A stretch of 64,000 nt of DNA from a bacterium (GCA_030606215.1 JAUWGW010000006.1:2207-66206), one strand, 5' to 3'. Shown: positions 23,914 to 56,589, counted from the stretch's first letter. Translations and numbers: made by a program. Notes: a model not told the origin generated them from the sequence alone.

Positions 23914-24731
23914 CTATTTACCTCCATGATTAGTTCCCCTTCATATACAAATGTAGCGTTGCCTTGCAGGTAAACATCTGTGACTTTTCCATCTTCAGGT
24001 TTGAAGTGGACTACTAATGTAGAGTTCCCTCCCGTCTCAACACTAGTAGGAGGGTTAACCTTCCCCAATAAATGCCCCACAATAGCTCCTGCCACAGCTC
24101 CTGTCCCGCAGGCAAGAGTTTCAGCTTCAACGCCTCTCTCATAGGTTCTCAGACGGATTTTTCTCCTGCCGACTACCTCAACAAAATCCACATTTGTTCC
24201 CTCTGGCTGAAACATTTTATGATAGCGTATTTTCCTGCCAAGCTCAATATCTATTGCTTCAAGATTTTCCACAATAAGCACAGTATGCGGGACGCCTGTA
24301 TTTATGGAACTTGCGGAGTATTCCCTGTTATCTATTAAAAGTTTAAAGGAGAGCTTAATCCCGGTGGGTTCATACATTTTCAATTTGACTTCAGTGCCGA
24401 TAACTTCAGCAGAAACCAATCCTGCAAGTGTTTCAAGGTTTACCTTCCTGCCGCTGATACCTTTACGGCTCGCAAATGCGGCAATACATCCGGCTCCGTT
24501 CCCGCACATCTCTGCTTCACTTCCATCAGGATTGAAAATACGCATTTTTAATTGGTCGGGTTTCCTGCTTTTTTCAAGAAGAAGCAATCCGTCTGCTCCA
24601 ACTGAATATGAGCGCTTGCATAACTTAAGGGCAAGGGAAGCTCTATCATGACAAGTCCCGAATCGGTTATCAATGACAATGAAATCATTTCCGCCTGCAC
24701 ACATTTTAGTAAACTTTAACCCTGATTGCAT
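23910..24731 (-). CDS. dapF: Diaminopimelate epimerase
   Basis: FTKMCAGGNDFIVID plus two catalytic-Cys contexts (MCGNGAGC, LACGTGAVA) are present. Confidence 0.9.
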   Translation of the reverse strand: MQSGLKFTKMCAGGNDFIVIDNRFGTCHDRASLALKLCKRSYSVGADGLLLLEKSRKPDQLKMRIFNPDGSEAEMCGNGAGCIAAFASRKGISGRKVNLETLAGLVSAEVIGTEVKLKMYEPTGIKLSFKLLIDNREYSASSINTGVPHTVLIVENLEAIDIELGRKIRYHKMFQPEGTNVDFVEVVGRRKIRLRTYERGVEAETLACGTGAVAGAIVGHLLGKVNPPTSVETGGNSTLVVHFKPEDGKVTDVYLQGNATFVYEGELIMEVNR

Positions 24732-24733
24732 AT

Positions 24734-25966: not shown

Positions 25967-27308
25967 TTAGGGTTTTCCTTGCCTTTTCAATTAACCGCCT
26001 GACTTCTCGTGGAGATGTTGATTTTCTTCTTTTAACGGAAACCTCGGGTTTTAGAAGTTTCTTTACATCTGAGCCAAAACCGAAGGAATGAAAATCTTTG
26101 TCTGAGAGGTCAGTAAAGTTTTTCTTATTCTTAATACAGTGCAGAACCAGCTTCCCGACTTTCTCATGAGCTTTGCGGAAAGGAATACCCTTGGTCACAA
26201 GATATTCTGCTAAATCAGTCGCGGTAGTAAAACCTTCCTGAGCAAGGCTCGTAATCCTTTCAACATTCAAGTGTAGAGCCTTCAGAAACACTGGATAAAC
26301 TTCAAGAGACCTTTTCAAAGTATCAACTGTATCAAAGAGAGGCTCTTTATCCTCCTGCATATCACGGTTATAGGAGAGCGGTAAACCTTTCATCATAGTA
26401 AGTGTATTCACAAGGTTCCCATATACCCTTCCACATTTGCCGCGGATAAGTTCTGCGATATCGGGGTTTTTCTTCTGCGGCATCATACTGCTGCCGGTGA
26501 GGACAGTTTCATCAAGAGTTATGAAATCAAATTCAGGGGATGCCCACATAATGAGCTCCTCACTCAACCTTGAAAGATGCATCATTAATATGGCACCGGC
26601 AGAAAGGAATTCCAGGATAAAATCTCTATCGCTTACCGCATCTATGCTGTGTTCGCATACTCTTGAGAAGTTCAGGAGACGAGCGACGAATCTCGGCTCT
26701 ATCGGTAGAGTTGAGCCGGCGAGTGCTCCTGCACCGAGAGGCAAACAGTCAACTTCTAAAAGAGCATTTCTTAACCTCTTCTTATCCCGTTCAAGCATAT
26801 AGAAATACGTCATGATATGATGTGAGAAAAGTACCGGTTGAGCATGCTGAAGATGGGTAAAACCTGGCATTACTACATCAAGATTTCCTTCAGCTAAATT
26901 CAGGATACTTTTTTCCAGAGCTTTTAAAAGGTTCAAGATAGCCTTGATTTCATCGCGCAGGTATAGTCTCATATCAAGGGCGATCTGGTCATTCCTGCTT
27001 CTCGCAGTATGAAGTTTACCCGCTACCTTACCTATCTTCTTATGTAAACGCTTCTCAATTGAGAGGTGGATATCTTCCTCCGGTGCGAGTTTACCGACTT
27101 CATCCGCAATTTTCTTCAGACCCTTTATTATAATGTCTCTCTCCTTTAGCTTTATGATTTTGCATTTTGCAAGCATCTTTACATGCGCAATACTACCTTC
27201 TATATCATATTTAGCAAGCCGTATGTCAAATGATATTGAGGCCGCGAAATCATCTATAACGGAACTTCTCGCATCTTGAAAAGCTCCCCCCCATAGTTTA
27301 TCACTCAT
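25959..27308 (-). CDS. argH: Argininosuccinate lyase
   Basis: KLWGGAFQD at the N-terminus and the GSSMMPQKKNPD fumarase/ASL signature are present. Confidence 0.9.
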   Translation of the reverse strand: MSDKLWGGAFQDARSSVIDDFAASISFDIRLAKYDIEGSIAHVKMLAKCKIIKLKERDIIIKGLKKIADEVGKLAPEEDIHLSIEKRLHKKIGKVAGKLHTARSRNDQIALDMRLYLRDEIKAILNLLKALEKSILNLAEGNLDVVMPGFTHLQHAQPVLFSHHIMTYFYMLERDKKRLRNALLEVDCLPLGAGALAGSTLPIEPRFVARLLNFSRVCEHSIDAVSDRDFILEFLSAGAILMMHLSRLSEELIMWASPEFDFITLDETVLTGSSMMPQKKNPDIAELIRGKCGRVYGNLVNTLTMMKGLPLSYNRDMQEDKEPLFDTVDTLKRSLEVYPVFLKALHLNVERITSLAQEGFTTATDLAEYLVTKGIPFRKAHEKVGKLVLHCIKNKKNFTDLSDKDFHSFGFGSDVKKLLKPEVSVKRRKSTSPREVRRLIEKARKTLNA

Positions 27309-28486
27309 TTCTTATACCCCCTGAAAGGTAGTCCCCAGAGTTTAATAAATCCTTTTGCCAGAGTCCTGTCAAACTTATCTCCTTCTTCATATGTGGCAAG
27401 AGACAAATCATAGAGTGAGTTAGGAGATTTCCTGCCAACAGCTTCACACACACCTCTGTAAAGTTTAATTCTGACAGTTCCGGTTACTTTCTCCTGCGTC
27501 TTTCTGGTAAAGGCATCAAGCGCCTCTCTAAGAGGAGAATACCACATCCCATAATACACGACTTCCCCGAACTTCTGGCTGACCAACTCCTTGAAATGCG
27601 CTGTCTCCCTGTCAAGAATAAGGTTTTCAAGTTCCCTGTGAGATATATGGAGAATGGTAGCAGCCGGAGCTTCGTACACTTCCCTCGATTTAATCCCTAC
27701 TACCCGGTTTTCTACAAGGTCAACCCTTCCAACACCGTTTTCCCCTCCGAGTTTATTCAACTGCTCAACAAGTTCTACAATCCCGTATTCTTTCCCGTTG
27801 ATTTTCTTCGGAACGCCGCTCTCAAAGTATATCTCTAAATATAACGGTTCATCTGGTGCGTCCTGTGGATTAACAGTCAATTGATAGGCTTTCTCCGGCA
27901 CCTCTTTCCATGGATCCTCTAATTCACCACACTCAATACTTACTCCCCATATATTTCTGTCAATACTGTATGGGTTTTCCTTTGTTGCAGAGACAGGGAT
28001 ATTATGTTCCTTCGCATAATCAACCTCATCGGACCTTGTCTTTAAAGACCACTCCCTTAGCGGTGCTATTGCCTCAAGAGATGGGTTGAGAGCGCTGAAA
28101 GCAAGTTCAAACCTCACTTGGTCATTCCCCTTACCTGTGCAGCCGTGAGCTACAAATTGCGCACCAACTTTTTCTGCAATCTCGGTAACTTTCTTTGCAA
28201 TGAGGGGTCGTCCCAGAGCAGTTGCAAGGAGATATTTCCCTTCATAAGAGGCTCCCGCCATGAGGGCAGGGAATACCCAGTCTTTCAAGAAACTCTCCCT
28301 CAAATCTTCAATATAGGCCTTTTTTGCTCCGCTTCTGAGAGCTTTATTCTTTAACTCATCCTGATTCAACCCCTGACCGAGTTCAGCAGAAAAAGTGATT
28401 ACATCAAGTCCCTTCTCTTCCTGCAGCCATTTAACACAGACTGAAGTATCCAACCCTCCGGAATAAGCAAGAACGACTTTAGCCAT
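27305..28486 (-). CDS. argG: Argininosuccinate synthase
   Basis: VVLAYSGGLDTSVCVKWL (PP-loop) is present. At 393 aa it is the canonical length. Confidence 0.9.
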   Translation of the reverse strand: MAKVVLAYSGGLDTSVCVKWLQEEKGLDVITFSAELGQGLNQDELKNKALRSGAKKAYIEDLRESFLKDWVFPALMAGASYEGKYLLATALGRPLIAKKVTEIAEKVGAQFVAHGCTGKGNDQVRFELAFSALNPSLEAIAPLREWSLKTRSDEVDYAKEHNIPVSATKENPYSIDRNIWGVSIECGELEDPWKEVPEKAYQLTVNPQDAPDEPLYLEIYFESGVPKKINGKEYGIVELVEQLNKLGGENGVGRVDLVENRVVGIKSREVYEAPAATILHISHRELENLILDRETAHFKELVSQKFGEVVYYGMWYSPLREALDAFTRKTQEKVTGTVRIKLYRGVCEAVGRKSPNSLYDLSLATYEEGDKFDRTLAKGFIKLWGLPFRGYKK

Positions 28487-28487
28487 T

Positions 28488-29396
28488 TTATCCCCCTAAT
28501 AATAGTAAAAGAATTGCTTTCTGGACATGTAGTCTATTTTCTGCCTGGTCAAGCACAACTGACGCCGGACCATCTATCACACCCTCTGTTATTTCTTCTC
28601 CCCTGTGTGCAGGTAAGCAGTGCATCACAAGTGTATCTTTCCCTGTTTTTTTGATAAGTTTCTCAGTAACACGGAAATTACCGAAAATTTCCTTTCTTTT
28701 CTCTTTCTCTTCCTCCTTACCCATACTTGCCCACACGTCTGTATATACGATATCGGCATCCACAACTGCTTCAAAAGCATCTCCAAGGACTTCAATTTTA
28801 GAACCGGTTTTCTTCGCCGTCTCTATCGCAGACTGGACAATTTCAGGTAGTGGTTCATATCCCGGAGGTGTCGCAATTGCCAGATCAAATCCAACTTTCG
28901 CTGCTCCATACAGCCAGGAATGAGCAACATTATTTCCATCTCCGATAAAAGCCACTTTTATTTTTCTCATCCCCGCCTTCTCCCGTATGGTGTAAATGTC
29001 ACTTAATACCTGACATGGATGCAACTTATCTGAAAGTCCGTTAATCACAGGGACATCTGCCGCCTCAGCCATTTCTACAATTCTCTCATGAGCAAATGTC
29101 CTCATAACAATTCCATCAACATAGCGAGAGAGAACCTTCCCAACATCCTTGACTTGCTCTCTCACACCGAGCTGTATATCATCCTGCCCTAAATAAATAC
29201 TGGAGCCTCCAAGTTGAAACATTGCCACTTCAAAAGAGACCCGGGTCCTGGTGGATGGTTTCTCAAAAATAAGTGCCAGGGTCTTCCCCGAAAGTGGTTC
29301 TTTTTTAGGGAAGCCTCCTTCTTTTAGAAGAGAAGTTTTTGAGAAAATCTCTTCTATGAAATCCCTTTCAAGTTCATGAATGGAGATTAAATTCAT
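28488..29396 (-). CDS. argF: Ornithine carbamoyltransferase
   Basis: STRTRVSFE and HCLPAHRGEE motifs are present. Confidence 0.9.
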   Translation of the reverse strand: MNLISIHELERDFIEEIFSKTSLLKEGGFPKKEPLSGKTLALIFEKPSTRTRVSFEVAMFQLGGSSIYLGQDDIQLGVREQVKDVGKVLSRYVDGIVMRTFAHERIVEMAEAADVPVINGLSDKLHPCQVLSDIYTIREKAGMRKIKVAFIGDGNNVAHSWLYGAAKVGFDLAIATPPGYEPLPEIVQSAIETAKKTGSKIEVLGDAFEAVVDADIVYTDVWASMGKEEEKEKRKEIFGNFRVTEKLIKKTGKDTLVMHCLPAHRGEEITEGVIDGPASVVLDQAENRLHVQKAILLLLLGG

Positions 29397-30567
29397 TTAG
29401 AACCTCACCCAGCACTTTTATACCTGCGTCAATTTCTTCCTCAGTAACGATTAGAGGAGGAAGAAAACGGATAACGGTTTCAACTGTACAGTTCAGTAAA
29501 ACTCCCCGCAAGGCACATTCTTTAACAATTTCTTTGCATGGTGTATTCAATTCAATCCCGACCATCAGACCTTTCCCGCGAACATCAGAAATTAGATTGT
29601 GTTTTTCTTTGAGCCGGCAGAGTTTTTCAAAAAGGTATTTCCCGGTAGTTTTTGCTCTTTCAGCAAGATTTTCCTTAAGTATCACTTCAAGAGTTGCGGC
29701 ACCGGCAGAACATGCAACTGGATTACCACCGAATGTTGAGGCATGGCTCCCAGGAGTGAAAACTTCAGAAACTCTCTCAGTTGCAAGTGCCGCTCCGAGA
29801 GGGAGACCTCCACCAAGAGGCTTGGCTAGGGTCATTATATCAGGTTCTATCCCGTAATGCTCATACGCAAAAAGTTTGCCTGTTCTTCCAAGACCGCATT
29901 GAATTTCATCAAGAATCAAGAGTAAATTCCTCTCGTCACATAATCTGCGAAGGCCAACAATGAATTCTGCCTCAGCTGCTCTGACCCCGCCTTCCCCCTG
30001 CACAGGCTCAATCATAACTGCTATGGTTTTGTCCCCTATTACCTTCTCTACAGCAGAAAGGTCATTGAATGGGACATGTTTAAATCCTGGTATAAGTGGT
30101 GCAAATCCTTTTTTGATTTTCTCCTGTCCTGTTGCGGTCAGAGTAACAATGGTTCTCCCGTGAAATGAACCTTCCATTGTGATTATCTCATATTTCCCAT
30201 TACCAAACTTCCTGCTAAGTTTTATAGCTGCTTCATTTGCTTCAGCTCCGCTGTTACAGAAGAAAACCTTATCAGCAAAAGAATTCTCAATCAATTTTTT
30301 ACCGAGTTCTGCCTGAGGTCTGGTATAGTAAAGGTTTGAAGCGTGAATAAGTATCTCTGCCTGTTTCCTGATGGCATCCACAATTTCGGGATGGCAATGT
30401 CCCAGTGTGCTCACAGCTATACCTGCTATTAAATCCAGATATTCTTTCCCGTGCGAATCCCATACCTTTGTTCCTTTCCCCCTGACGATACTTATTACGC
30501 GCTCGCCATATGTATTCATCAAAAAATCATTAGAAAGCTTTTCAAAATCTACTCCGTCGGGGGTCAC
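29374..30567 (-). CDS. argD: Acetylornithine aminotransferase (class III)
   Basis: LLILDEIQCGLGRTGKLFA and TLAKPLGGGLPLGA (PLP Lys) are present. It sits in the arg context. Confidence 0.85.
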   Translation of the reverse strand: MTPDGVDFEKLSNDFLMNTYGERVISIVRGKGTKVWDSHGKEYLDLIAGIAVSTLGHCHPEIVDAIRKQAEILIHASNLYYTRPQAELGKKLIENSFADKVFFCNSGAEANEAAIKLSRKFGNGKYEIITMEGSFHGRTIVTLTATGQEKIKKGFAPLIPGFKHVPFNDLSAVEKVIGDKTIAVMIEPVQGEGGVRAAEAEFIVGLRRLCDERNLLLILDEIQCGLGRTGKLFAYEHYGIEPDIMTLAKPLGGGLPLGAALATERVSEVFTPGSHASTFGGNPVACSAGAATLEVILKENLAERAKTTGKYLFEKLCRLKEKHNLISDVRGKGLMVGIELNTPCKEIVKECALRGVLLNCTVETVIRFLPPLIVTEEEIDAGIKVLGEVLNEFNLHS

Positions 30568-31379
30568 TTTACGATCTCCGTCCCTACACCTTTATCTGTA
30601 AATATCTCGAGGAGAAGGGAATGGTCGATTCTTCCATCGATGATATGCGCTTTCCTGACACCTGCTTTCAAAGCTTTCACACAGGCAAGCACTTTCGGAA
30701 TCATACCACTGCTTATCACCCTTCCCCTTATCAGGACTTCACAATCATCAATTTTTAATGTTGAAATGATAGATTGCTCATTCATTATACCAGGAACATC
30801 CGTCATAAGAATAAGTTTTTCAGCCCCTAATTTGGCGGCAATTCCTGATGCGGCCTCATCTGCATTTATATTGAATGTTTCATCATTTTCTCCCTTACCG
30901 AGAGGAGCAATTACTGGTATAACTTTCTCCTGTATTATGCTCAAAAGTTTACTGTCTATCCCACCCACCTCACCTACAAATCCGAAATCTTGACTTAGTT
31001 TCTTCGCTTTGATAAATTCCTTTCCATTCAACCCAACTGCTTTCCCGCCCGCTTCTTCAATCAACCCTATAATTTCCCTGTTTATATTCATCAAAGTATT
31101 CTCTACAATAGCGAGTGTTTCTCTGTCAGTCACTCTTAACCCATTTATAAACTTTGACTTCTTCCCCCTCGCTTTCATTTCTTCATTTATGGCTGTGCCT
31201 CCGCCGTGGATAAGAATTGGTCTTAGCCCGACAAATTTCATAAATACGACATCCTTAACAAAATCTTTTCTGAGCTTCTCTCCTCCTCCATACTTAATAA
31301 CCACAAATTTGTCATGGAAACGCCTGATATATGGCAGTGCTTCCATTAATACATTTACTTTTTCTATCGCTCTTTTCAT
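30564..31379 (-). CDS. argB: Acetylglutamate kinase
   Basis: FVVIKYGGG..., LRPILIHGGG and TDVPGIM motifs are present. Confidence 0.9.
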   Translation of the reverse strand: MKRAIEKVNVLMEALPYIRRFHDKFVVIKYGGGEKLRKDFVKDVVFMKFVGLRPILIHGGGTAINEEMKARGKKSKFINGLRVTDRETLAIVENTLMNINREIIGLIEEAGGKAVGLNGKEFIKAKKLSQDFGFVGEVGGIDSKLLSIIQEKVIPVIAPLGKGENDETFNINADEAASGIAAKLGAEKLILMTDVPGIMNEQSIISTLKIDDCEVLIRGRVISSGMIPKVLACVKALKAGVRKAHIIDGRIDHSLLLEIFTDKGVGTEIVK

Positions 31380-31406
31380 TTTATGAACCAGGCTCTTGTA
31401 GTTTTG

Positions 31407-32594
31407 CTATGTATTAGTTCGCACGTACTCTTCAGTCAAATCACTCGTCCACACAGTATAGTCTTTCTTGCCAAGATTCAGGTAAATAGATACCTTTATC
31501 TCTCCGTCTGCTAAAACTTCTTTCACTTTTCTTTCATCGTAATCTGTCGCACATCCATTCTTCATAACCCGCACATCTCCCATAAAAATTGACAATTTCC
31601 GTTCCATTACATTGACTCCTGCGCTGCCAGCAGCAGATGCTATTCTTCCCCAGTTAGGGTTCTCCCCTCCCAATGCAATCTTGACCAGACTTGAATTAGC
31701 GATATTGAAACCTATTTTCTTTGCATCCTCCTGGCTTTGGGCACCAGCTACTTTTATCTCAATGAACTTTTTTGCTCCCTCGCCATCCTTTACAATCATT
31801 TTCGCCATTTTATGCGTTACATAGTTAAGAGCTTTCTGAAACTCATTAAAGGATTCACTGCCGCTGTGGATTTTTCTGTTACCTGCAATTCCATTTGCAA
31901 GGATGAAGACACTATCATTTGTGCTCCTATCTCCGTCTACTGTAATTCTGTGAAATGATTTATCAACGGAATCTCTAAAAGCTTTCTCAAGTGCGGATTT
32001 GCTTATTGACGCATCGGTTGTTATGAAACATAGCATTGTAGCCATTGATGGGCATATCATACCCGCTCCTTTACCCATAGCGCCAATTGACACACTTTTC
32101 CCGCTAACTTCAAAGCTCACGGCTGCTTCCTTGTGGAAAGTATCAGTGGTCATTATTGCCTGAGCCGCTGAAGTATTTCCCTTGCAGTTAAGGCTTTTCA
32201 CAAGATACCTGATTCTTGACCTTATTTTAGCCACTGGCAGGAACTGGCCAATGATTCCTGTTGAGGCGATAAGAATATCTTCCTTGCTTACCCCAAGTTC
32301 TCTTGCGACAAGAGCTGTTATGAGTTTTGCATCTTTATATCCCCTCGCTCCTGTACAGGCATTTGCATTACCGCTATTTACAATAATTGCCCTTGCTTTT
32401 GCATCTTGCAGATGTTCCCGGCTGAGTTTCACAGATGCTGACTGAATTTTGTTTGTTGTAAATACGGCTGAAGCCAGTGTTTCCCCTTCTGAATAAATTA
32501 GAGCAAGATCTTTCCCCCTCCTTTTTATTCCACAGTGGATACCACATGCAGAAACCCCGGCTGGTGCTGTAATTCCTCCAGAAATTTCTTTCAT
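31407..32594 (-). CDS. argJ: Bifunctional glutamate N-acetyltransferase / amino-acid acetyltransferase
   Basis: The PSMATMLCFITTDA self-cleavage site (ATML) is present. 395 aa. Confidence 0.9.
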   Translation of the reverse strand: MKEISGGITAPAGVSACGIHCGIKRRGKDLALIYSEGETLASAVFTTNKIQSASVKLSREHLQDAKARAIIVNSGNANACTGARGYKDAKLITALVARELGVSKEDILIASTGIIGQFLPVAKIRSRIRYLVKSLNCKGNTSAAQAIMTTDTFHKEAAVSFEVSGKSVSIGAMGKGAGMICPSMATMLCFITTDASISKSALEKAFRDSVDKSFHRITVDGDRSTNDSVFILANGIAGNRKIHSGSESFNEFQKALNYVTHKMAKMIVKDGEGAKKFIEIKVAGAQSQEDAKKIGFNIANSSLVKIALGGENPNWGRIASAAGSAGVNVMERKLSIFMGDVRVMKNGCATDYDERKVKEVLADGEIKVSIYLNLGKKDYTVWTSDLTEEYVRTNT

Positions 32595-35489: not shown

Positions 35490-36092
35490 CTACGGATTTA
35501 CAAGAGCACCCTTTGTTGTCGTGCTACCATAACCATCATTAGGAATCTCGGAACTTATATCTGCCTTCTTCACCCAATCTGAATGCCCATCCATGTAGAG
35601 TGCATTTATTCCGTCGGTGGAATGGTTGGTACCAGTAGTTAACTCATCTGCCCAAACCGATGCCGCGCTGCCAGACTGGTCAACTGCCATGGCAGTATCA
35701 TTCTCTGTGCTGGCATCGATGGCACTCAGGTTGTAAGCCAGTGCATAGGAAATGTTCCCTGCTGCAAGACTTAAATTATCCGTATCCTTGGTGTCAGTAC
35801 TGCTCGGGCAAAAGAGAACACCACCTGAACAATATGTTCCATCAGTTACCAGGACCTGGAAGTCATTCACTGTGTTTTGGGTAGAACCAGCAGGGTACTC
35901 CTCATCATAGTCCATCGAATACATTGCCAATCCCAAGGCAATCTGCTTCTGGTTGCTCATACAGACGGCTCTTCTTGCCTGCTCTCTTGCTCTGCTCAAT
36001 GCCGGCAGGAGCATTGCCGCCAAAATCGCAATAATTGCGATAACAACTAACAACTCTATCAACGTAAAACCTCTTTTCATTTTTGTTGTCAC
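35490..36092 (-). CDS. Prepilin-type N-terminal cleavage/methylation domain protein with H-X9/10-DG C-terminal domain
   Basis: [48 protein letters not shown] at the N-terminus; C-terminal [14 protein letters not shown]. Second member of this family in the window. Confidence 0.7.
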
Positions 36093-36140
36093 CCCCTTTC
36101 AACTTTGGTCTATTCAATTTATAACATACCTCACTTTATC

Positions 36141-36169
36141 TTGTCAAGCCCAAAATTAAATGATATAAT
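36141..36169 (+). promoter_or_regulatory. Near-consensus sigma70 promoter with extended -10 (TTGTCA-17nt-TGaTATAAT) for the leuC-leuD-icd operon
   Basis: Read directly: ttgtca agcccaaaattaaatga tataat. It lies about 40 nt upstream of the GTG start at 36208. Confidence 0.45.
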
Positions 36170-36207
36170 TGCATAGATTTTTGATGAGGCAATTTTGGGG
36201 GAGAACA

Positions 36208-37467
36208 GTGGGCAGGACTGTTGTTGAGAAGATACTGAGTGAGCACAGCGGGAGAGAGGTTTGCGCTGGAGAATTTACTGTAGCAGCTGTTGATTTAATC
36301 CTTGCCCAGGATGGAACAGCGCCGCTTGCAATTGACGTTTTCAATCAGCTTGGGGTGGGGAAACTGGCAATTCCCGGGAAGTCAGCATTTTTCATAGACC
36401 ATGCTTCCCCTCCACCGCGTAGAGAACTTGCAAATGACCATGCGAAAATACGAAAGTTTGTCTCTGAGCATAGTGCAGTTATTTTTGATATAGGGGACGG
36501 AGTTTGTCATCAGGTGATGACGGAAAAGTGTACCTCACCAGGCGATATTCTTATTGGTGCTGATTCACATACAGTAACAGGTGGAGCTGTTGGGGCATTT
36601 GCTGTTGGAATGGGTTCAACTGATGTTGCTGTAGGGCTCGCATATGGCAAGAACTGGTTTCGTGTGCCCGAAACTTTTAAGATTCTTCTAAAGGGAATGT
36701 TCAGCAAAGCTGTTTTCCCGAAAGATTTAATTCTTCACCTGATTGGTCTCATCAAAGCGGATGGTGCAAACTATAAATGTCTTGAGTTTACAGGAGAATC
36801 TCTCAGGCATATGAGTATTCCGGATAGGATGACAGTTGCAAATATGTCGGTGGAAGCAGGTGCAAAATGTGGAATATTTCCGTCAGATGAGAGGACAAAA
36901 ATGTTCCTGACTGAACTCGGCAGGGAAGATAAATTCAGAAGAATTGAAGCTGATAAGGATGCTGAGTATGAAGAAACAATTGAAATTGACCTTTCAACTT
37001 TAAGACCTATGGTCTCGCTCCCTCACAGAGTGGATAGAGTTCTGCCTGTAGACGCTCCTGAATTAAAGGAAATAGAAATCAACCAGATTTTTATTGGTAG
37101 TTGCACAAACGGGAGAATTGAAGATTTGAGAATCGCATCCTCCATCATAAAAGGGAAGAGGAAACATGAGAATGTTCGTCTCATTGTAATTCCGGCCTCC
37201 CGCCTCACTTTCAAGCAGGCGATGGATGAAGGGATTCTTGAAATATTCAATGAATTTGGGGCATCTATAAATAATCCTGGTTGTGGTCCGTGCTGTGGAG
37301 TTCATCAGGGCATTCCTTCTGATGGAGAAAATGTCCTTTCTACCTCAAACAGGAATTTCAAGGGCAGAATGGGTAATCCTGAGGCTTTTGTCTATCTGTC
37401 CTCACCGGCTACAGCCGCCGCTTCGGCAATAACAGGTAGAATTACTGACCCAAGGGAGGGGATGTGA
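36208..37467 (+). CDS. leuC: 3-isopropylmalate dehydratase large subunit family protein (LeuC/homoaconitase-type aconitase-family hydro-lyase)
   Basis: About 420 aa from GTG 36208 (GGGGGAG RBS). GADSHTVTGGAVGAFAVGMGSTDVAV, GSCTNGRIEDLR and the CGPCCGVHQG Fe-S ligand motif are present. Confidence 0.85.
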   Translation: MGRTVVEKILSEHSGREVCAGEFTVAAVDLILAQDGTAPLAIDVFNQLGVGKLAIPGKSAFFIDHASPPPRRELANDHAKIRKFVSEHSAVIFDIGDGVCHQVMTEKCTSPGDILIGADSHTVTGGAVGAFAVGMGSTDVAVGLAYGKNWFRVPETFKILLKGMFSKAVFPKDLILHLIGLIKADGANYKCLEFTGESLRHMSIPDRMTVANMSVEAGAKCGIFPSDERTKMFLTELGREDKFRRIEADKDAEYEETIEIDLSTLRPMVSLPHRVDRVLPVDAPELKEIEINQIFIGSCTNGRIEDLRIASSIIKGKRKHENVRLIVIPASRLTFKQAMDEGILEIFNEFGASINNPGCGPCCGVHQGIPSDGENVLSTSNRNFKGRMGNPEAFVYLSSPATAAASAITGRITDPREGM

Positions 37468-37961
37468 AACCTACAGGGAGAGTATGGAAATTTGGGGATA
37501 GCATCAGCACTGACCTCATCTGCCCTGGAAGGTATTACCACCTTCGTTCAAATTTGAATGAGCTTGCAAAACATGTTCTTGAAGACGCTCGCAGTGAATT
37601 TGCTGGTTGTGTCAAGAAAGGGGATTTTATTGTTGCGGGAGCAAATTTTGGTCTTGGTTCAAGCAGAGAGCATGCCGCAATAATAATTAAGATGGCAGGA
37701 ATCTCAGTGGTTTTGGCAAAATCCTGCGCGCGGATCTTTTATCGCAATGCGTATAATATTGGGCTTCCCGTAATTTTGTGCGATACTGTTAAAATAAATG
37801 ACAGGGATGAACTTCGTATAGAGATGGAGAGCGGAGAGATAAAAAACTGTACCACGGGCGAGACTCTGCATTTCTCTCCAATCCCGCAGATAATGGCAGA
37901 TATTTTAAAAGAAGGCGGGTTGGTTTCATATTTAAAGAAATATGGGGATATCAAGATATGA
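37464..37961 (+). CDS. leuD: 3-isopropylmalate dehydratase small subunit family protein
   Basis: 165 aa. [18 protein letters not shown]...[14 protein letters not shown] is the LeuD swivel-domain signature. ATGA overlap with leuC. Confidence 0.85.
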
Positions 37962-39148
37962 AATTTGACCGTGTAAAGCCGCCATCAAATGGTGAGAAAA
38001 TATCCTTCCACGGCGGTAAACTTCAGGTGCCGCAGAACCCTGTAATTCCTTATATTGAAGGAGATGGTGTGGGGCCGGACATTATGAAGGCTGCAAGGCG
38101 GGTTTTTGATTCTGCAGTCGCTAAAGCATATGGCGGCAGGAGAAAAATTATATGGTTTGAAATTTTCGCAGGTGAAAAAGCGAACAACTCCTGTGGAGAA
38201 TATCTCCCAAAGGATACTCTTGAAGCTATAGAGAATTATGTTGTTGCAATAAAAGGCCCTCTGACAACACCTGTTGGAGGCGGATATAGAAGTCTGAATG
38301 TTACAATCAGGCAGGAACTTGACCTCTATGCCTGTGTGCGTCCTGTGAGATATTTTAAGGGTGTTCCTTCACCTCTTAAACATCCGGAGAAATTAAATGT
38401 TGTCATATTTCGTGAGAATACTGAAGATGTCTATGTTGGAAACGAGTGGGAAGCAGGAACAGGGGAAGCAAAGACGATAATAGAGTATCTGAACACTAAA
38501 TTCGGAACGAAGATAAGAGAGGCTTCGGGAATTGGAATTAAGCCGATGAGTGAGTTTGCAACAAAAAGGCTTATGAGGAAAGCTATAAAGTATGCAATTG
38601 AGGAGGGCAGGAATTCTATCACTATAATGCATAAAGGGAATATAATGAAATATACTGAAGGCGCTTTCAGAGAATGGGCGTATGAGGTGGCAAGAGAAGA
38701 GTTCCCTGGCCTTAAAATCATAATTAAAGATAGAATTGCAGATAGTATGTTCCAGCAAATTCTGACAAGACCTGATGAATATGATATTATTGTTGCGCCC
38801 AATCTGAATGGAGATTATATCTCTGATGCGTGTGCGGCACAGGTAGGAGGTCTTGGCATTGCGCCGGGTGCAAATATGGGGGATTTCGTAGCTCTCTTTG
38901 AAGCAACACATGGAACTGCACCAAAATATGCTAACCAGGATAAAGTTAACCCGGGCTCTCTTATTCTGTCAGGGGTGATGATGTTTGATTATATAGGGTT
39001 GAAAGAAGCATCAAAGATAATTATAGATGCTTTTCAAGAAACAATTCTGCAGAAAAAGGTCACCTACGATTTAGCGCGCCAGATGGAGGGGGCTGTAGAG
39101 CTTAAAACTTCTGAGTTCGCCTCCGCAATTATAGAAAATATGAGTTAG
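37958..39148 (+). CDS. icd: NADP-dependent isocitrate dehydrogenase
   Basis: 396 aa. Near-colinear with E. coli Icd: ...[23 protein letters not shown]...[12 protein letters not shown]...[72 protein letters not shown] overlap with leuD. Confidence 0.92.
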
Positions 39149-39161
39149 AGGAGTAACTATC

Positions 39162-40721
39162 ATGCGAAAGATGAAAATTGCCTGCCTTGTTATTGCCATT
39201 TTATTAGTAGTAGCTGGTGTGGCACTGATGCACATTGAGTTTTCCCATCCAGAGCTCAGAAACGCAGTTGCTTCAAGATTGAGCGCTTCTCTCGGGATAC
39301 CTGTGAGAATGGAGAAACTTTCTCTCAGACTCTCGCAGGGAATAAAAGTCAAAAATCTCTCATTGGGCGCTGAGGACGCAGAAATTCTCTCTGCAAAAGG
39401 GATAATTCTCCAGTGTAATTTCCTTCAAATGCTTCGCAGACAATTCAATGTGCGAAGTGTAGTTGTTGAAAAGCCAGTTCTCACATTGCGAAAAGAGCAG
39501 ATTGGATTCCTGCTCCTTCCACTGATTGCCACCAGTCAGCATTCTTCTTCCAGTAACTCGGAATTCCAGTTTCAGCTTGCGGAAGCTCGGGTGCGTAGTG
39601 GCAAAGTAAATGTTGAGCGTGAAGAAAGTGGTTCTCTCGCGGTTGATGAAATTGACCTTGAGGTGTCTTCGGAGGGAAAAGGAAAGCCTGTTAAGATTAA
39701 AGGAGCGGGGACAATGCAGGCATTTGACTTCTCCATGCTTGGTTCATATCAAGCAGGTGAGAAGAGCCCGGTCGATTTTAGAATAACTACTGATGTAGAC
39801 TGGAGCAGAATAAATGAGACACTTAGCAAACTAAATCTGAGAGCGCCAGCCAATCTCAAAGGGAGAGGAAAAAGCACAGTTGATATTATCCTCACAGGCA
39901 GCCCCGGTGAATTGAATGTAGATGTAACCAGCGACCTCACAGAAAATGAGCTCTCCTATGGTAACCTGCATAAGCCAGGCGGATTTGTGACAAAATTTAA
40001 GATGAGCTCTGTATATTCTTCTGGGAGCCTAAGAGTGGATGATATTGTTGTGATTATTGGTGAAGGTAGGTTGACCGGCTCGGGGGAGATTTTGCAGGGC
40101 GGGAAATATAAATTCTCCATAAAAGGCGAAAACATAGATATGGAGAAACTTTTGAGTATAAAGGAGAAAGATGAGGTAAAACTTAATATGAGTGGAAAAG
40201 CAAAGATGCAAGCGCAAATTGCTAATAGTGGCGGGGGCACGCAGGGGCTAAATGGAGGAGGTAGTCTACAAATTCAAAATGGTCTGGTTAAATCGTTTTC
40301 ATGGCTTGAAGACCTTTTTTCAACAATTAATCTGCCTGAGCTTATGCCGTTTAAATATACAAAAATTATCGGAAGTTTTAATATTATAGATGGGAAAGTG
40401 GATATTACAGAAACTATAGTCCATGGGGAAGATGCTGTTCTTGCTACTGAAGAAGGGGAAATTGACCTTGTCAAAAAAACGAAGAATATCTCAGCTGACT
40501 TAGCACTTGCCCCGCATCTTGTGAAAAGGCAGCGTTTCAAATTCAAGGAGTTTGACAAATTTTTCTATGTGGATGAGAATGGTTTCGCACATTTAGCCGT
40601 TGTCTGGAGAGGACCGCTCTCAAAAGGAACTCCTGATTTAACAGCTTCCTTCCTCAAAACAGGAATAAAAAAATATGGCAGCGAGTTACTGGAGAAGTTA
40701 TTTGGGGAAGATGAGGATTAG
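39162..40721 (+). CDS. AsmA-family-like envelope protein (N-terminal TM anchor, long beta-rich periplasmic region)
   Basis: 519 aa. N-terminal TM (IACLVIAILLVVAGVAL) followed by a repetitive low-complexity region. The assignment is tentative. GAGGAG RBS. Confidence 0.45.
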   Translation: MRKMKIACLVIAILLVVAGVALMHIEFSHPELRNAVASRLSASLGIPVRMEKLSLRLSQGIKVKNLSLGAEDAEILSAKGIILQCNFLQMLRRQFNVRSVVVEKPVLTLRKEQIGFLLLPLIATSQHSSSSNSEFQFQLAEARVRSGKVNVEREESGSLAVDEIDLEVSSEGKGKPVKIKGAGTMQAFDFSMLGSYQAGEKSPVDFRITTDVDWSRINETLSKLNLRAPANLKGRGKSTVDIILTGSPGELNVDVTSDLTENELSYGNLHKPGGFVTKFKMSSVYSSGSLRVDDIVVIIGEGRLTGSGEILQGGKYKFSIKGENIDMEKLLSIKEKDEVKLNMSGKAKMQAQIANSGGGTQGLNGGGSLQIQNGLVKSFSWLEDLFSTINLPELMPFKYTKIIGSFNIIDGKVDITETIVHGEDAVLATEEGEIDLVKKTKNISADLALAPHLVKRQRFKFKEFDKFFYVDENGFAHLAVVWRGPLSKGTPDLTASFLKTGIKKYGSELLEKLFGEDED

Positions 40722-41158
40722 TGATGAACGTGAATATTGTATGGGGTGAAATTAATGTATCAACGGATAAACGGTTCAAGATAATAGATATAACTCAGGA
40801 CGTGAGAAAGATTGTCGAGAATGGAAAGGTGAAAGAGGGAACTGTAACAATTTTCAATCCCCATGTTACATGTGCCGTCTGTATTAATGAACATGACACT
40901 GAACTCTGGGAAGATTTGTTAGAAGCGTATCAGAAACTTGCTCCTCTAAAAGGAAACTACCGGCACAACGCCAAATACAGCGGCATCCAGGGTGAGCAAA
41001 ACACACACGCCCATATACTCAATACCCTGATTGGGGCAAGTGTGAATCTTCCTGTGAGAGATGGGAAACTGATTCTCGGAACCTGGCAATCAGTCCTGTT
41101 TGTAGAACTGGATGGCTGTAGAAGAAGAAAACTGACAGTGCAGGTTACCGGGAAATAG
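40721..41158 (+). CDS. YjbQ/UPF0047 family protein (secondary thiamine-phosphate synthase fold)
   Basis: 145 aa. TVTIFNPHVTCAVCINEHDTELWEDL...HILNTLIGASVNLPVRDGKLILGTWQSV matches the YjbQ family. Confidence 0.7.
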   Translation: MMNVNIVWGEINVSTDKRFKIIDITQDVRKIVENGKVKEGTVTIFNPHVTCAVCINEHDTELWEDLLEAYQKLAPLKGNYRHNAKYSGIQGEQNTHAHILNTLIGASVNLPVRDGKLILGTWQSVLFVELDGCRRRKLTVQVTGK

Positions 41159-41178
41159 ATAGTAGTTTCCGAGAAATT

Positions 41179-41198
41179 TTCCGAGGCCCTCCTCGGAA
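41179..41198. terminator. Bidirectional hairpin between convergent yjbQ-like gene and the korG-like gene (ttccgagg-ccct-cctcggaa)
   Basis: Perfect 8-bp stem with 4-nt loop read at 41179-41198. It lies between convergent gene ends. No clear U-tract follows. Confidence 0.4.
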
Positions 41199-41211
41199 CA
41201 GCTTCCACATC

Positions 41212-41751
41212 CTATCGCTGTGCAAAATCCCCCCCACTGATGAGGGATTTTCTATTTACTTCAAGTAATCCATGCCACCTTTCGGGAAGCACATCTTGCA
41301 GAAGACGGCATGCTTTCTCGACTGATGTTAACTTTTTCAACGAGAGATACGCTCCAAGCATGACCATATTTGCAGAGCGGATGTTTCCGGCATCTTCAGC
41401 AAGTTTATTGGCAGGCAATTTTATCACCTTAATATCGCTGCGCTCCGGTTCTTTATCAATAAGGGAGGAATTGAGAATTAATAACCCTTCTTTCTTAAGC
41501 CTTGGGCAGAACTTATCAAGTGATGGTTTATTCATAACAACAATGGTTGATGGGCTGGAACTGAGAGGAGATGCAATTTCTTCTTTTGAGATAATCACTG
41601 TGCAGTTAGCTGTTCCGCCTCTTACTTCAGCTCCGTATGATGGCATATAAGTGAGGCGATACCCTTCCTTCATTGCAATATAGGCAATGAATTTACCCAT
41701 AAACATTACACCCTGCCCGCCAAATCCGGAAATAACTATTTCTTCATGCAT
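41212..41751 (-). CDS. 2-oxoacid:ferredoxin oxidoreductase, gamma subunit
   Basis: 179 aa. [50 protein letters not shown] is the typical gamma subunit sequence. Confidence 0.8.
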
Positions 41752-42487
41752 CTTTCAAATTTCCCTTTATAACGCCCAATGGGAAATTGGGTATCATTTT
41801 TTCCTCAATCCATTCCTTTGCTTCTTTTGGCGAAAGTCTCCAGTAACTTGGACATGGGGAGAGAATCTCAACAAGAGAGAATCCTTTATTCTCAAGTTGA
41901 ACCTGGAAAGCCTTCTTTATAGCCAGTTTGGTTTTCCTGATATTTGCAGGATTACTGATAGCTGTCCTGCAGAGAAAAACTGTTCCAGGGAGGATAGCAA
42001 GTAATTCTGAAACTTTTAAAGGGTATCCTGCACTCGAATCTCGTCCGCCTGGAGTAGTAGCTGTTACCTGTCCGAGCATTGTAGTTGGTGCCATCTGTCC
42101 GCCTGTCATTCCATATACTGCATTGTTAACAAAAATTACAGTTATCCTTTCCCCTCTATTTGCGGCATGGATTATTTCCGATGTCCCTATTGCGGCAAGG
42201 TCACCATCACCCTGGTAGGTAAAAACTACCCTCTCCGGAAGAATACGCTTTATTCCTGTAGCAACGGCGGGTGTTCGTCCATGTGCGGCTTCTGTCATAT
42301 CTATATTGAAGTAATCATATGCAATAACGGCGCATCCTACAGGCGCAACTCCAATAGTCTTCTCCCTGATACCGAGTTCATCAATCACCTCTCCGAGCAG
42401 GCGGTGAATCACACCATGCCCGCAGCCAGGACAATAATGTGTCCAGACATCTTTCATTGATTCGGGAAGCGAGAAAACTTTTTTCAT
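41744..42487 (-). CDS. 2-oxoacid:ferredoxin oxidoreductase, beta (TPP-binding) subunit
   Basis: [15 protein letters not shown]... and GDGDLAAIG...[14 protein letters not shown] motifs are present. ATG at 42487 overlaps the TGA of the alpha subunit; the track's 42568 start would overlap alpha by 85 nt. Confidence 0.85.
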
Positions 42488-43536
42488 AGAAGTTCTCTTA
42501 TCTTCCGACTGATTTCCTCTGCAGTAGGTACTCCACCACCTGTTCTTCCATAGAAATGAACAGGACATTTTCCACTGACAGCTAATCTAACATCTTCCAC
42601 CATCTGCCCTGCGCTCATCTCAATAACGAGAAAACAATTTATCCGTGAGGATACATCTGCTATAACCTTTTCAGGAAATGGCCAGAGAGTTATCGGTCTT
42701 ATAATTCCTGCTCTTATCCCTTCACTCTTTACCTGGTTTAGAGCCGCTTTTGCAATACGGGCTGAGGTCCCATAAGCAACAAGGATTATCTCAGCATCAT
42801 CAATCCCTTCCTCTTCGTAGAGAATTTCCTTTTCCTTCATAACTCTGAATTTATCCTGAAGGTGTCTATTGTGTTTTTCAAGTTCCCCTTCTTTCAGAAT
42901 AAGTGAGCGGATGATTCTGGGGGAACGGCCTTTTGCACCTGTTAGAATCCAGTCTTTCTCAGGGCAAGCAAGCTTGCCAACCCTTTTTTTGATTTTAACA
43001 GGTTCCATCATCTGTCCGAGGATACCATCTCCAAGAATAAGCACAGGATTTCTATATCTGTCAGCTAAATCAAAGGCAGCTCCCATGAGTTCAGCAAGTT
43101 CCTGGACATTAGCAGGTCCAAAAACTATCAAATTGTAATCTCCGTGTCCTCCTCCTTTTGTTGCCTGGAAATAATCGGATTGCGCAGGAGCGATATTACC
43201 AAGTCCCGGGCCTCCGCGCATCATGTTCACAATTACAGCAGGAAGTTCATTCCCTGCAAGGTAGGATATTCCCTCCTGTTTCAGACTTATGCCGGGACTT
43301 GAGGAGGAAGTCATGGCACGTGCGCCGGCAAGAGAAGCTCCAAACACCATACTAATAGCCGCCAGCTCACTTTCTGCTTGTATGAATACACCGCCCTCCT
43401 CAGGCATCCTTCTTGCCATATAGGCAGTCAACTCATTCTGAGGAGTTATTGGATACCCGGCGTAGAACCTGCATCCTGCCTGGATTGCAGCTTCCCCAAC
43501 AACCTCATTCCCGCACATTAATACCTTTTCACTCAT
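42484..43536 (-). CDS. 2-oxoacid:ferredoxin oxidoreductase, alpha subunit
   Basis: 350 aa. [29 protein letters not shown]...[29 protein letters not shown] is the alpha-subunit N-terminal signature. Confidence 0.85.
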
Positions 43537-45604
43537 GGACTATCTCGTAAACAAATACGCCTCTTTCAAGAAATAGTTGCCTGAGGTATTTTTCGGATGT
43601 CAGGAACTCAGCAAACATCTCACTTGCTTTCTCGCTTGCCCAGTTAAATGAGTGGTAATGTTGAGCTACCCTTTTGACTTCGGAGGCATTAAACAGAATA
43701 TGTGTGATTCCAAGTGTGTGGAGCTTATCGCAGATCTCTTTGCTTGATGAGCTTTCATTGACAATTTCAACAATGATGTTTGTATCAAGCGGACTGTTTG
43801 ATACAACCTCGCGATTACAGTAGTATGTCTGGTTCTCCCCTATGAAAAGGAGCTTTGCATCCTCTGGAAGTTCATTATTTATGTAACGAAAGGCAGGATA
43901 CTGGTAGAGGGGTGAGTCAATCAGAAACTCATCCCGATTTTTTATGCCTGTAGCCACTTTCAGCAAATCATATTTAGCTATTGTCAGCGGTAGCCATGCT
44001 AAATTAAAAAGAAACACAAAAAGAATAACAAGATGTATGAACAAAGTCAACTGCTTGTTTCTTTTGTAGCTTTCCACAGCGTATGCTGAAGCTATGCTCA
44101 GAGCCGGGAGACAGGGGATGAGGAATCTTGTATCCTGATGAGTAAAGAAAACCCAGAGCAAAAAATATATACCACCATAAATTAAAAAGAGTTTTACAAC
44201 GGGTTTCACAGAACGGATGAATAAAAGACAGGGCAGTAATAATATAAATGCAGGGCCAATCTTTTTATCCATATTAATTCTCCAGAGGAGCGAGAGAATA
44301 TGCCCTATCCCTAAGTTTTGCGGCTGGTGATGTTTCATAAATCTTTCAGGGTTAAAAGTCTCGCCGAACGGATGCCCGAAGAATTTATAAAAGAAATTGT
44401 GAAAAAAAGGATATACAGGGTTATGAGTGAAAAAGGCATTTTTTATAAGCCATGGGGATGCAACCAGTAAACTGATGAAAATAAAAAGAGCTATTTTTTT
44501 AAAGCAAAGGATGGGAATTTCCTTATCGCTAAACTCTTTAATTACAATTGCTAAAAGCAGGATTGGAAGAAGGAGCAGTAAAGCTGTATACTTTGTTCCG
44601 ATGGACAACCCGCAGAATATGGCTGATACAAATAACCAGGTTTTTTTCTTTGCTGAAAACCAGTTGAGAAATGCCGCTACAGCCAGAAATTCATACAGGG
44701 TTAACATCAGGTCATTAAAAGCCCATCCTGAGAGAAGACCAACAAACGGAATATTGTAGAAAATGAGCGAGGCGAGTAAACTTACCTTCTTATTAAAATG
44801 TTTCACTGAAAAGGAATAAATAGCAAGTATTATGAAGATGCCCATTGAAAAGTGAACTAATTTCGCAAGTGTATCTCCATAGAGAAGCAAGCTGAAAAGA
44901 TAAAGAAATTCCGTTGTCATCGGGAAATTTGCGTATACATTGTGAGGTATGTAGAAAATCTGATGTTCTCCTGCATAAAGCTTCGGGATAGCAAGGTGAT
45001 ATGCGAGGCTGTCATAATTAAGTTCTGGAGTAAAAACCTGGATAAGGTAAAGACAAATGCTGATGATGAGGATAACGCCAAATATGACTACAAATTGGGA
45101 ATTGCCTTTTCCATTTTGAATTTCACACTTTTCTTGAGGAAAGTGCAAGTGCCCCGCTTTCTTTTGTTTCCCCTCCCTCGAGGGGAGGGGGTAAGGGGGA
45201 GGGTGATGGTTACGAAGTTTTCTTAAGAATGTGCGGAGTTGTGGGATGGAGAAGGCTAAGAGGATTACTAATAGTGTATAAGCAGCAGTTCTGTAAAGAA
45301 GGTGGAGAAAACCAAAAATAAAAATTAGAAAGCTCAAAATCCCAAATCCGAGTGAACTGGAAAAGACAAAAGTTTCCAGGGAAGAGCTAAAATATATTTT
45401 CAAATAGCGAAATACTCTCTCACCAAGAGAAAATGCAATAATAATTATGGCAAAAAGTAATATGAAGTTGATTGAAGAGGAAACAATGTGGTGAAGGAGA
45501 AGGAAGTGTTCATTATAGTTGATAAAACGCAGGGCCACCCCAACCACCCATACAAGGACGAAGCATATTACGATAGGTGATTTAACCCTGTAACTCATTC
45601 TCAC
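43529..45604 (-). CDS. Large polytopic membrane protein (about 16 predicted TM; possibly GT-C-fold glycosyltransferase-like) with an internal Pro-rich linker
   Basis: 691 aa. Highly hydrophobic with many TM helices. An internal hydrophilic segment RNHHPPPYPLPSREGKQKKAGHLHFPQ is encoded by a GC-rich near-palindrome at 45170-45200. Function is not assignable from sequence. Confidence 0.55.
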   Translation of the reverse strand: MRMSYRVKSPIVICFVLVWVVGVALRFINYNEHFLLLHHIVSSSINFILLFAIIIIAFSLGERVFRYLKIYFSSSLETFVFSSSLGFGILSFLIFIFGFLHLLYRTAAYTLLVILLAFSIPQLRTFLRKLRNHHPPPYPLPSREGKQKKAGHLHFPQEKCEIQNGKGNSQFVVIFGVILIISICLYLIQVFTPELNYDSLAYHLAIPKLYAGEHQIFYIPHNVYANFPMTTEFLYLFSLLLYGDTLAKLVHFSMGIFIILAIYSFSVKHFNKKVSLLASLIFYNIPFVGLLSGWAFNDLMLTLYEFLAVAAFLNWFSAKKKTWLFVSAIFCGLSIGTKYTALLLLLPILLLAIVIKEFSDKEIPILCFKKIALFIFISLLVASPWLIKNAFFTHNPVYPFFHNFFYKFFGHPFGETFNPERFMKHHQPQNLGIGHILSLLWRINMDKKIGPAFILLLPCLLFIRSVKPVVKLFLIYGGIYFLLWVFFTHQDTRFLIPCLPALSIASAYAVESYKRNKQLTLFIHLVILFVFLFNLAWLPLTIAKYDLLKVATGIKNRDEFLIDSPLYQYPAFRYINNELPEDAKLLFIGENQTYYCNREVVSNSPLDTNIIVEIVNESSSSKEICDKLHTLGITHILFNASEVKRVAQHYHSFNWASEKASEMFAEFLTSEKYLRQLFLERGVFVYEIVHE

Positions 45605-56465: not shown

Positions 56466-56589
56466 GATGCAACTCCCTCACTATTTGCACATGTACTTTT
56501 AGCAAGGTTATTATAACATAGCAAAATAGTTAGTCAAGTACTTCTTGCCTTATCACGGAAATCCAGTTTGGTGTTCCTGCCCTTCCGTC

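Follow-up and report, generated by a model that had tools for sequence, protein, structure and literature searches.

Closest described systems and the window pair

The closest described counterpart of the locus analysed here comes from Dehalococcoides mccartyi, whose operon encodes a putative aconitase large subunit, a putative small subunit, the biochemically validated isocitrate dehydrogenase (IDH) DET0450, mdh and fumAB (PMC4720418 and its supplement). That genome also carries a separate leuA-leuC-leuD-leuB operon (PMC4720418 and its supplement), and the separate leuC-leuD-leuB genes show that the two kinds of pair are paralogous. The locus lies in a 64,000-nucleotide stretch of bacterial DNA (GCA_030606215.1 JAUWGW010000006.1:2207-66206, hereafter the window), where two LeuC/LeuD-like genes overlap icd, the gene for an NADP-dependent IDH. 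Taken together, homology, gene context and residue alignment suggest that positions 36208-37961 probably encode a heterodimeric [4Fe-4S] aconitase of LeuCD architecture, coupled to this IDH. Since the same arrangement is already annotated in Dehalococcoides, the window provides a new example and not a new kind; for the window itself the result is modest, a further case of a Dehalococcoides-type putative arrangement.

As in Dehalococcoides, the gene order in the window is large subunit, small subunit, IDH. Dehalococcoidales loci from metagenome-assembled genomes with this order (L035 and others; these MAG proteins, not those of D. mccartyi, were compared) fall in the same clade as the window pair and carry the same HLRSN loop. 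Unlike the Dehalococcoides proteins, those of the window are Aminicenantes-like, with about 55% identity, and mdh and fum stand outside the operon. Its IDH is of the E. coli NADP type, about 400 aa long, versus about 360 aa for the Dehalococcoides type. Within the Dehalococcoides operon the IDH is the only member assayed, and the aconitase subunits are putative there too.

Three further enzyme types share features with the pair. The homoaconitase (HACN) MJ1003/MJ1271 of M. jannaschii (PDB 4KP2, 2PKP) is likewise a heterodimer; its small-subunit loop contains an Arg, and its large subunit has the PGCGPCxGxHQG motif, which aconitase also has. Unlike the window pair, however, HACN is an outgroup in the tree described below, its loop reads YLRT where that of the window reads YYHLRSN and is one residue longer, and the window partner is IDH, not homoisocitrate dehydrogenase; the HACN equivalog models also failed. 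The isopropylmalate isomerase (IPMI) MJ0499/MJ1277 and LEU2-type LeuCD enzymes match the pair in subunit sizes, cluster ligands and the GSSRE motif, but IPMI has a hydrophobic loop (YLVY; ARYLNT[ST]D in many bacteria) and, in place of the PGCGPCxGxHQG motif, PSCSACMGSLYG in its large subunit, and the window pair has no leuA/leuB linkage. Mitochondrial aconitase (PDB 5ACN/7ACN), AcnA and AcnB align with the pair at catalytic and cluster residues and carry out the reaction proposed for it, yet each is one four-domain chain of about 750-890 aa, whereas the window has two chains of 419 and 165 aa.

The fused 'aconitate hydratase' PRK07229/TIGR01342 (about 650 aa) offers another comparison. The large subunit of the window corresponds to positions 2-414 and the small subunit to positions 476-599 of the 647-position model, with 389 and 81 bits under its cutoff of 612; the fused enzyme is a single polypeptide, and its proposed pathway role is the same as that of the window pair. 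Fused aconitases of the PRK07229 type occur in Re-citrate synthase-aconitase-IDH clusters of Clostridia.

In the scheme proposed here, the pair would interconvert citrate, cis-aconitate and isocitrate and, together with IDH, would convert citrate to 2-oxoglutarate with formation of NADPH. The superfamily-wide cluster ligands and catalytic residues would come from the large subunit, and the GSSRE motif and the recognition loop from the small subunit; within this loop, Arg28 of HLRSN would bind the tricarboxylate through its gamma-carboxylate, in the manner of Arg580 in mitochondrial aconitase. The role would most probably be oxidative, in a biosynthetic branch supplying glutamate and probably also arginine; a complete arginine cluster is found just upstream, on the opposite strand. 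Both the substrate and the direction of flux are what we infer from sequence features.

Operon structure and family assignment

Five tightly packed genes occupy the plus strand at 36141-41158, and 4-nt overlaps mark both the junction of large and small subunit and that of small subunit and icd. The large-subunit gene (36208-37467) encodes a 419-aa LeuC/HacA-type [4Fe-4S] hydro-lyase (Pfam Aconitase, NCBIfam PRK00402), the proposed aconitase large subunit. A mechanical open reading frame (ORF) call begins this gene at TTG 36169, which falls within the -10 hexamer of a promoter candidate; the start is likely GTG 36208, behind a GGGGGAG ribosome-binding site (RBS), and the identical 419-aa database protein P0001 has the same start. 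The small-subunit gene (37464-37961, plus strand) encodes a 165-aa swivel-domain protein (Pfam Aconitase_C, LEUD_arch), proposed as the aconitase small subunit, and its GTG start overlaps the large-subunit stop as GTGA. Next, icd (37958-39148, plus strand; 396 aa) overlaps the small-subunit stop as ATGA. The initial annotation had described the three genes as translationally coupled and given ATGA as the overlap; the coupling stands, with ATGA at icd and GTGA at the first overlap.

A shared, near-consensus promoter at 36141-36169 had also been proposed. The site is present on the plus strand as a sigma-70-like candidate, TTGTCA-17 nt-TATAAT with a TG extension and a motif score of 11/12, and it is the top scorer among 19 sites found at 35900-43800, where shuffled sequence gives 14.5 +/- 3.7. 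It is plausible as a promoter, though statistically unremarkable when taken alone, and it may serve all three genes. A terminator-like site was looked for between icd and the following gene and none was found, and an Rfam scan of the window returned a single tRNA, with no leader or riboswitch 5' of the operon.

Profile searches assign the pair to the superfamily while leaving it outside the curated equivalogs. The large subunit matches Pfam Aconitase (E 1.8e-99) and passes PRK00402, the 'aconitase/3-isopropylmalate dehydratase large subunit family protein' model (549 > 385), but falls below the cutoffs of the LeuC equivalog LEU2 (TIGR02083; 460.9 < 610.65) and of HacA_Meth (424.9 < 550). Likewise, the small subunit matches Pfam Aconitase_C and passes the LEUD_arch subfamily (189 > 109), but stays below the leud equivalog (TIGR02084; 178.5 < 245.85), HacB2_Meth (196.3 < 230) and HacB_Meth (145.6 < 230). 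The HacAB equivalog PRK14023 is also missed (143 < 229), and the canonical aconitase models all fail (aconitase_1, 106 < 945; acnB, 128 < 1287; aconitase_mito, 172 < 825). Relatives from Aminicenantes, Dehalococcoidales, Syntrophomonas and one methanogen show the same pattern of NCBIfam passes and failures. Judged by these models, the pair passes at subfamily level only and counts as a curated member of neither LeuCD nor HacAB.

The best matches of the pair among solved structures are the two chains of the MJ0499/MJ1277 isomerase (E 1.5e-110 and 3.8e-48). Alignment to IPMI, HACN and pig aconitase places the Cys ligands of the large subunit in GSCTNG (297-302) and GCGPCC (358-363) and shows that the catalytic CHQ, DSHT, NMSVE and NRNFKGR motifs are conserved; the small subunit carries GSSREH at residues 65-70. 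By alignment, the canonical aconitase residue set is present, namely three Cys ligands, Asp-Ser-His, His, Arg447/Arg452, Ser642-Arg644 and an Arg580 equivalent, and within this set only the Arg580 equivalent is not common to IPMI and HACN.

The partner gene is assigned more directly. As the initial annotation had held, icd encodes a bona fide NADP-IDH and not LeuB: its product exceeds the NADP-IDH equivalog cutoff (TIGR00183; 632.7 > 567.3) and that of PRK07006 (601 > 490), reaches 133.8 on the LeuB model TIGR00169, well under the cutoff of 353, and scores 203-217 bits on AksF models with cutoffs of 500-540. The solved structures agree, the best being A. fulgidus IDH (2IV0, E 2e-163) and E. 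coli IDH (E 1e-152), with which the product is colinear over its full length save for a deletion of about 18 residues. The gap sits at residues 249/250, and the missing segment is present in both the A. fulgidus and the E. coli enzyme. The IDH of a relative with 81% identity has 406 aa and that of Desulfobacterota 376 aa, so the length of the segment at this point varies among the IDHs of the group.

Specificity loop, gene context and phylogeny

A flexible loop of the small subunit sets the substrate preference of these heterodimers, according to the part of PMC7308503 that cites Jeyakanthan 2010. In the window, the loop reads YYHLRSN, and its recognition codons (37539-37553, plus strand) encode H26-L27-R28-S29-N30, with Arg28 inside the loop. 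Alignment to solved structures gives PARYL-VYTKPEELA for the MJ1277 IPMI, PGRY-NLTKDPKELA for the LeuD of Pyrococcus horikoshii and PGPYLRT-TDPYELA for the MJ1271 HACN. Once domain 4 of pig aconitase (PDB 5ACN residues 566-753) is included in the profile alignment, Arg28 shares a column with Arg580 of that enzyme and with Arg26 of the M. jannaschii HACN, the Leu after the loop Arg lines up with aconitase Leu583, and the GSSRE motif with aconitase Ser642-Arg644. In aconitase, Arg580 binds the gamma-carboxylate of the substrate. The Arg28 column holds Tyr in IPMI (MJ1277) and Thr in P. horikoshii LeuD, and thus Arg in neither. The 2010 structural register of Jeyakanthan, which sets YLVY against YLRT, is said to place a Val at the Arg28 position of IPMI, again with no Arg.

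The loop is almost invariant within the clade as PGR-x-x-HLR[ST], and 62 of 66 small subunits have LR[STN][ND]. A broader survey searched 1.84 billion cluster representatives and compared 150 representatives of 50%-identity clusters; among these, the HLR-type loop occurs only in the dozen or so top-scoring ones, and most of the others have LeuD-like ARYLNT[ST]D or HACN-like YLRT loops.

A variant was also seen inside the clade. The small subunits of four related loci, cited here by number (L074, L076, L082, L087), have a GKYKFK[ST]LD loop in which Lys replaces HLR, and their carriers form a basal sub-branch (Dictyoglomus, Desulfovirgula, Syntrophomonas). The genes lie in clusters of NifV-like synthase, large subunit and small subunit, followed in L082 and L087 by an IDH-family gene; that of L087, the only one of the two tested, passes the NADP-IDH equivalog. 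This pattern suggests a second loop solution to the same task.

Gene context in relatives links the pair to the tricarboxylic acid (TCA) cycle. Among named organisms, Candidatus Aminicenantes/Aminicenantia have the closest relatives of the large subunit (67-69% identity), and metagenomic proteins reach 71-86%; from these matches, the host appears to be an Aminicenantes-like bacterium, related to that group. A scan of one genome per species yielded 80 loci, drawn from many phyla of bacteria and archaea, with 51-68% identity. Their neighbours were classified by ORF calling and phmmer, and contexts were counted in those 58 loci whose sequence extends 2.5 kb or more downstream. The small subunit adjoins the large subunit in 53 of these 58, an Iso_dh gene (isocitrate/isopropylmalate dehydrogenase family) lies within 4 kb in 40, mdh, fumarase or succinyl-CoA synthetase genes occur in 15, and 47 contain an IDH gene, a TCA gene, an HMGL-like synthase gene or more than one of these. 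All ten Iso_dh neighbours that were sampled score best on IDH models and far under the LeuB cutoff, five of them above an NADP-IDH equivalog cutoff, and none of the ten is LeuB. Neither leuA nor leuB was seen among the neighbours in the 80 related loci, the dehydrogenase type having been checked in ten.

The closest relatives are consistent with this picture. L089, the locus of protein P0004 (81% identity), has the large-small-NADP-IDH order of the window, with an IDH score of 650 against a cutoff of 567, and Aminicenantes relatives at 68-71% (L002, L003, L009, L090, L091) have the order large-small-mdh-fumarase beta-sucC-sucD. A pathway cartoon in an Aminicenantes genome paper shows a 'citrate hydro-lyase'. 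As a separate observation, four of these operons encode only the beta part of a class I fumarase (Fumerase_C, about 184 aa; L002 12797-13351, L009 12915-13466, L090 10858-11412, L091 10926-11480), with no fumarase alpha gene adjacent, while L065 has alpha and beta.

HMGL-like genes upstream of the pair are mostly short (380-430 aa) and NifV/homocitrate-synthase-like, without the LeuA regulatory domain. Re-citrate synthase belongs to the NifV-like synthase family, going by the title under which PMC3087415 cites Li et al. 2007. A second form was noted in Desulfobacterota and others (L004/L005 8163-9998, L006 8175-9998, L017, L028, L037), where the upstream synthase is long (560-611 aa) and divergent, reaches 130-155 bits on NifV/LeuA models, has dCache-like Pfam matches and directly abuts the large subunit. 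In L004, a thioesterase gene takes the place of the small subunit.

These synthases bear on a possible homoaconitase (HacAB-like) that would act on homocitrate and cis-homoaconitate in 2-oxoacid elongation or the alpha-aminoadipate pathway, with an incidental linkage to icd. Two NifV/homocitrate-synthase-like genes precede the pair in L014, L022, L026, L033 and L060, the Arg-Ser of the window loop resembles the Arg-Thr of HACN, the PGCGPCxGxHQG motif is common with MJ1003 and not with IPMI, and the small subunit finds its best NCBIfam match in a homoaconitase model from methanogens. Such a function is nevertheless quite improbable, as every HACN equivalog cutoff failed and the overlapping gene is an NADP-IDH equivalog rather than a homoisocitrate dehydrogenase, with the AksF scores (203-217 against 500-540) far from passing. 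Moreover, the window contains lysine genes of the diaminopimelate (DAP) route, the host is related to Aminicenantes and is not a methanogen, and the closest relatives tie the pair to mdh, fum and sucCD.

Phylogeny separates the pair from enzymes of leucine synthesis. A neighbour-joining tree computed from 85 large subunits, without bootstrap, unites the window protein with all 80 of its closest genomic relatives in a single clade, from which the M. jannaschii IPMI (MJ0499) and HACN (MJ1003) are excluded, as is a second large subunit encoded in L065. The LeuC homologue does not cluster with bona fide isopropylmalate isomerases, a grouping that the initial annotation had named among the findings that would count against its proposal. 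The second L065 protein is a true LeuC (LEU2 674.4 > 610.65), whereas the clade member of L065 scores 437, below the cutoff, and precedes the genes for fumarase alpha and beta. Since both stand in one locus, a single genome holds both kinds of large subunit; a LeuD gene was looked for beside the true LeuC within that locus, and none was found.

Paralogy of this sort also bears on whether the window pair could be a promiscuous isomerase that serves as aconitase and, at the same time, as the only isopropylmalate/citramalate isomerase of its host, a role that has been suggested for the one such enzyme of Pyrococcus horikoshii. HACN loop variants turn promiscuous, according to the passage of PMC7308503 that cites Jeyakanthan 2010, the 64-kb window holds no second LeuCD, and small genomes often economise on paralogues. 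We regard this dual role as unlikely, because a separate true LeuC exists beside the clade member in the L065 and D. mccartyi genomes, and because the loop is strongly conserved and its charged Arg would be unfavourable to an isopropyl side chain.

A plain leucine-pathway isopropylmalate isomerase that stands beside icd by chance is highly improbable. This had been the alternative offered by the initial annotation, a leucine gene oddly paired with icd, and every test made disfavours it. In its favour are the public annotation of the relatives, nearly all of which are called '3-isopropylmalate dehydratase large subunit', and Pfam and TIGR subfamily matches that are common with LeuCD. Yet LEU2 and leud both failed, whereas the true LeuC of L065 scores 674; the clade stands apart from IPMI and true LeuC; the neighbours in the 80 related loci are IDH and TCA genes rather than leuA/leuB; and the loop is without the hydrophobic residues of IPMI.

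Four independent lines of evidence support the aconitase that the initial annotation had proposed as a LeuCD homologue feeding IDH: the equivalog failures, the neighbour-joining clade, the TCA-linked gene context and the loop Arg aligned with Arg580. At the level of the whole clade, we lean, on balance, towards a phylogenetically distinct and biochemically uncharacterised subfamily of heterodimeric true aconitases, marked by the loop PGR-x-x-H-L-R-[ST]-N. On this somewhat favoured view, the clade would provide the aconitase of many anaerobes, including Aminicenantia, Dehalococcoidia, Zixibacteria, Cloacimonadota, Actinomycetota and several archaea, and the subfamily would be one that published superfamily classifications do not contain and that is routinely mis-annotated as 3-isopropylmalate dehydratase.

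Several points weigh against the aconitase assignment. The literature searched contained no assay of a clade member, and superfamily classifications list eight subfamilies with no heterodimeric aconitase among them (PMC8184944, PMC5144071). The top NCBIfam match of the small subunit is HacB2_Meth, the methanogen homoaconitase model (196 bits, cutoff 230), and a methanogen, Methanosalsum (L054), has the same loop as the window. No citrate synthase is encoded in the window, and the preference for citrate or homocitrate is not separable from sequence alone. Finally, the neighbour-joining tree is a distance tree with no bootstrap and few outgroups, and is therefore supportive rather than decisive.

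The annotation of these proteins matters beyond the window, as a family-level point that extends across many phyla and is not special to this locus. Through mis-annotation as '3-isopropylmalate dehydratase', metabolic reconstructions of uncultured anaerobes may miss the aconitase and TCA branch and over-count leucine genes. Two rules could help: an HLR[ST]N loop combined with failed LeuC/LeuD equivalogs, and linkage to IDH, mdh, fum or Re-citrate-synthase-like genes. If activity were confirmed, a heterodimeric aconitase would join a superfamily whose aconitases are so far known only as single chains, and the finding would shed light on the evolution of the IPMI, HACN and aconitase specificities from one another through a single loop.

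Genes surrounding the operon

The gene content of the window was surveyed by Pfam for about 50 ORFs, ten of which were also examined by NCBIfam and then four more. The absence of aconitase A and B noted in the initial annotation was borne out, as none of AcnA, AcnB, leuA, leuB or ilv appears among the roughly 50 ORFs scanned in the 64-kb window. Upstream on the minus strand, an arginine and DAP-lysine supercluster (20876-32594) contains argJ, argB, argD, argF, argG, argH, lysA, dapF, dapA, dapB and dapL, the last being an LL-DAP aminotransferase gene (TIGR03540, 597 > 593). The cluster ends 3.6 kb upstream of the operon, with rpsI/rplM and two envelope genes between them. Because the DAP route genes dapA, dapB, dapL, dapF and lysA are in the window, a homoaconitase is not needed for lysine, and these genes disfavour an alpha-aminoadipate-lysine homoaconitase.

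Downstream, on the minus strand, lie the genes of a three-subunit 2-oxoacid:ferredoxin oxidoreductase (41212-43536): gamma at 41212-41751, beta at 41744-42487, with its true start at 42487, and alpha at 42484-43536. The initial annotation had recorded such an enzyme of the KOR/POR family 2 kb downstream; subunits, family and distance stand, the oxidoreductase beginning 2.06 kb after the icd stop, but its strand is corrected, since it lies opposite to and convergent with the operon. Being convergent, it forms a separate transcription unit. The alpha subunit scores above the VorB subfamily NF005507 (537 > 399) and below the 2-oxoglutarate synthase alpha model NF007206 (253 < 579). From these profile scores, the enzyme belongs to the POR/KOR/VOR family, and its substrate specificity is not readable from a subfamily score. 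Nor does the oxidoreductase stand beside leuCD-icd in the 81% relative L089.

With its VorB-type alpha subunit, its failure on the 2-oxoglutarate synthase alpha model, its convergent orientation and its absence from L089, the oxidoreductase is unsupported as the KOR of the locus, and no result ties its function to the IDH operon. The continuous citrate-isocitrate-2-oxoglutarate-succinyl-CoA module that had been proposed loses its oxidoreductase link on the same evidence. The alpha gene shares 8 nt with the gene upstream of it, which encodes a PMT_2-family glycosyltransferase (43529-45604, minus strand; 691 aa), an odd operon partner for an oxidoreductase, and no gene for a delta (ferredoxin-like) subunit is present.

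Two further genes complete the plus-strand unit. An AsmA/YhdP-like membrane protein gene (39162-40721) follows icd after a 13-nt gap and has its own AGGAG RBS; it is probably co-transcribed with icd, and a metabolic link is not evident. The gene is not kept 3' of icd in L089. The final gene of the unit (40721-41158, plus strand) encodes a YjbQ/UPF0047 family protein (TIGR00149, 120.9 > 67.75).

Elsewhere in the window, two genes for MttB-superfamily methyltransferase homologues (501-1964 and 6364-7827, plus strand), each followed by a GFO_IDH_MocA oxidoreductase gene, flank genes for a pyruvate dehydrogenase-like E1 alpha/beta and a class-III aminotransferase (501-8878, plus strand). A URO-D/MtaA-like gene lies further on (15196-16299, plus strand). 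This region may be a catabolic cluster for quaternary amines or related compounds.

At the other end, a type I restriction-modification system occupies 55149-60844 on the minus strand, with hsdM at 59357-60844 and hsdS at 56896-57732. A DUF6036 nucleotidyltransferase gene and an unassigned 350-aa gene are inserted between hsdM and hsdS, and an AAA_14/DUF4143 ATPase gene adjoins the system. The tRNA is a tRNA-Ser(GCT) at 61314-61403.

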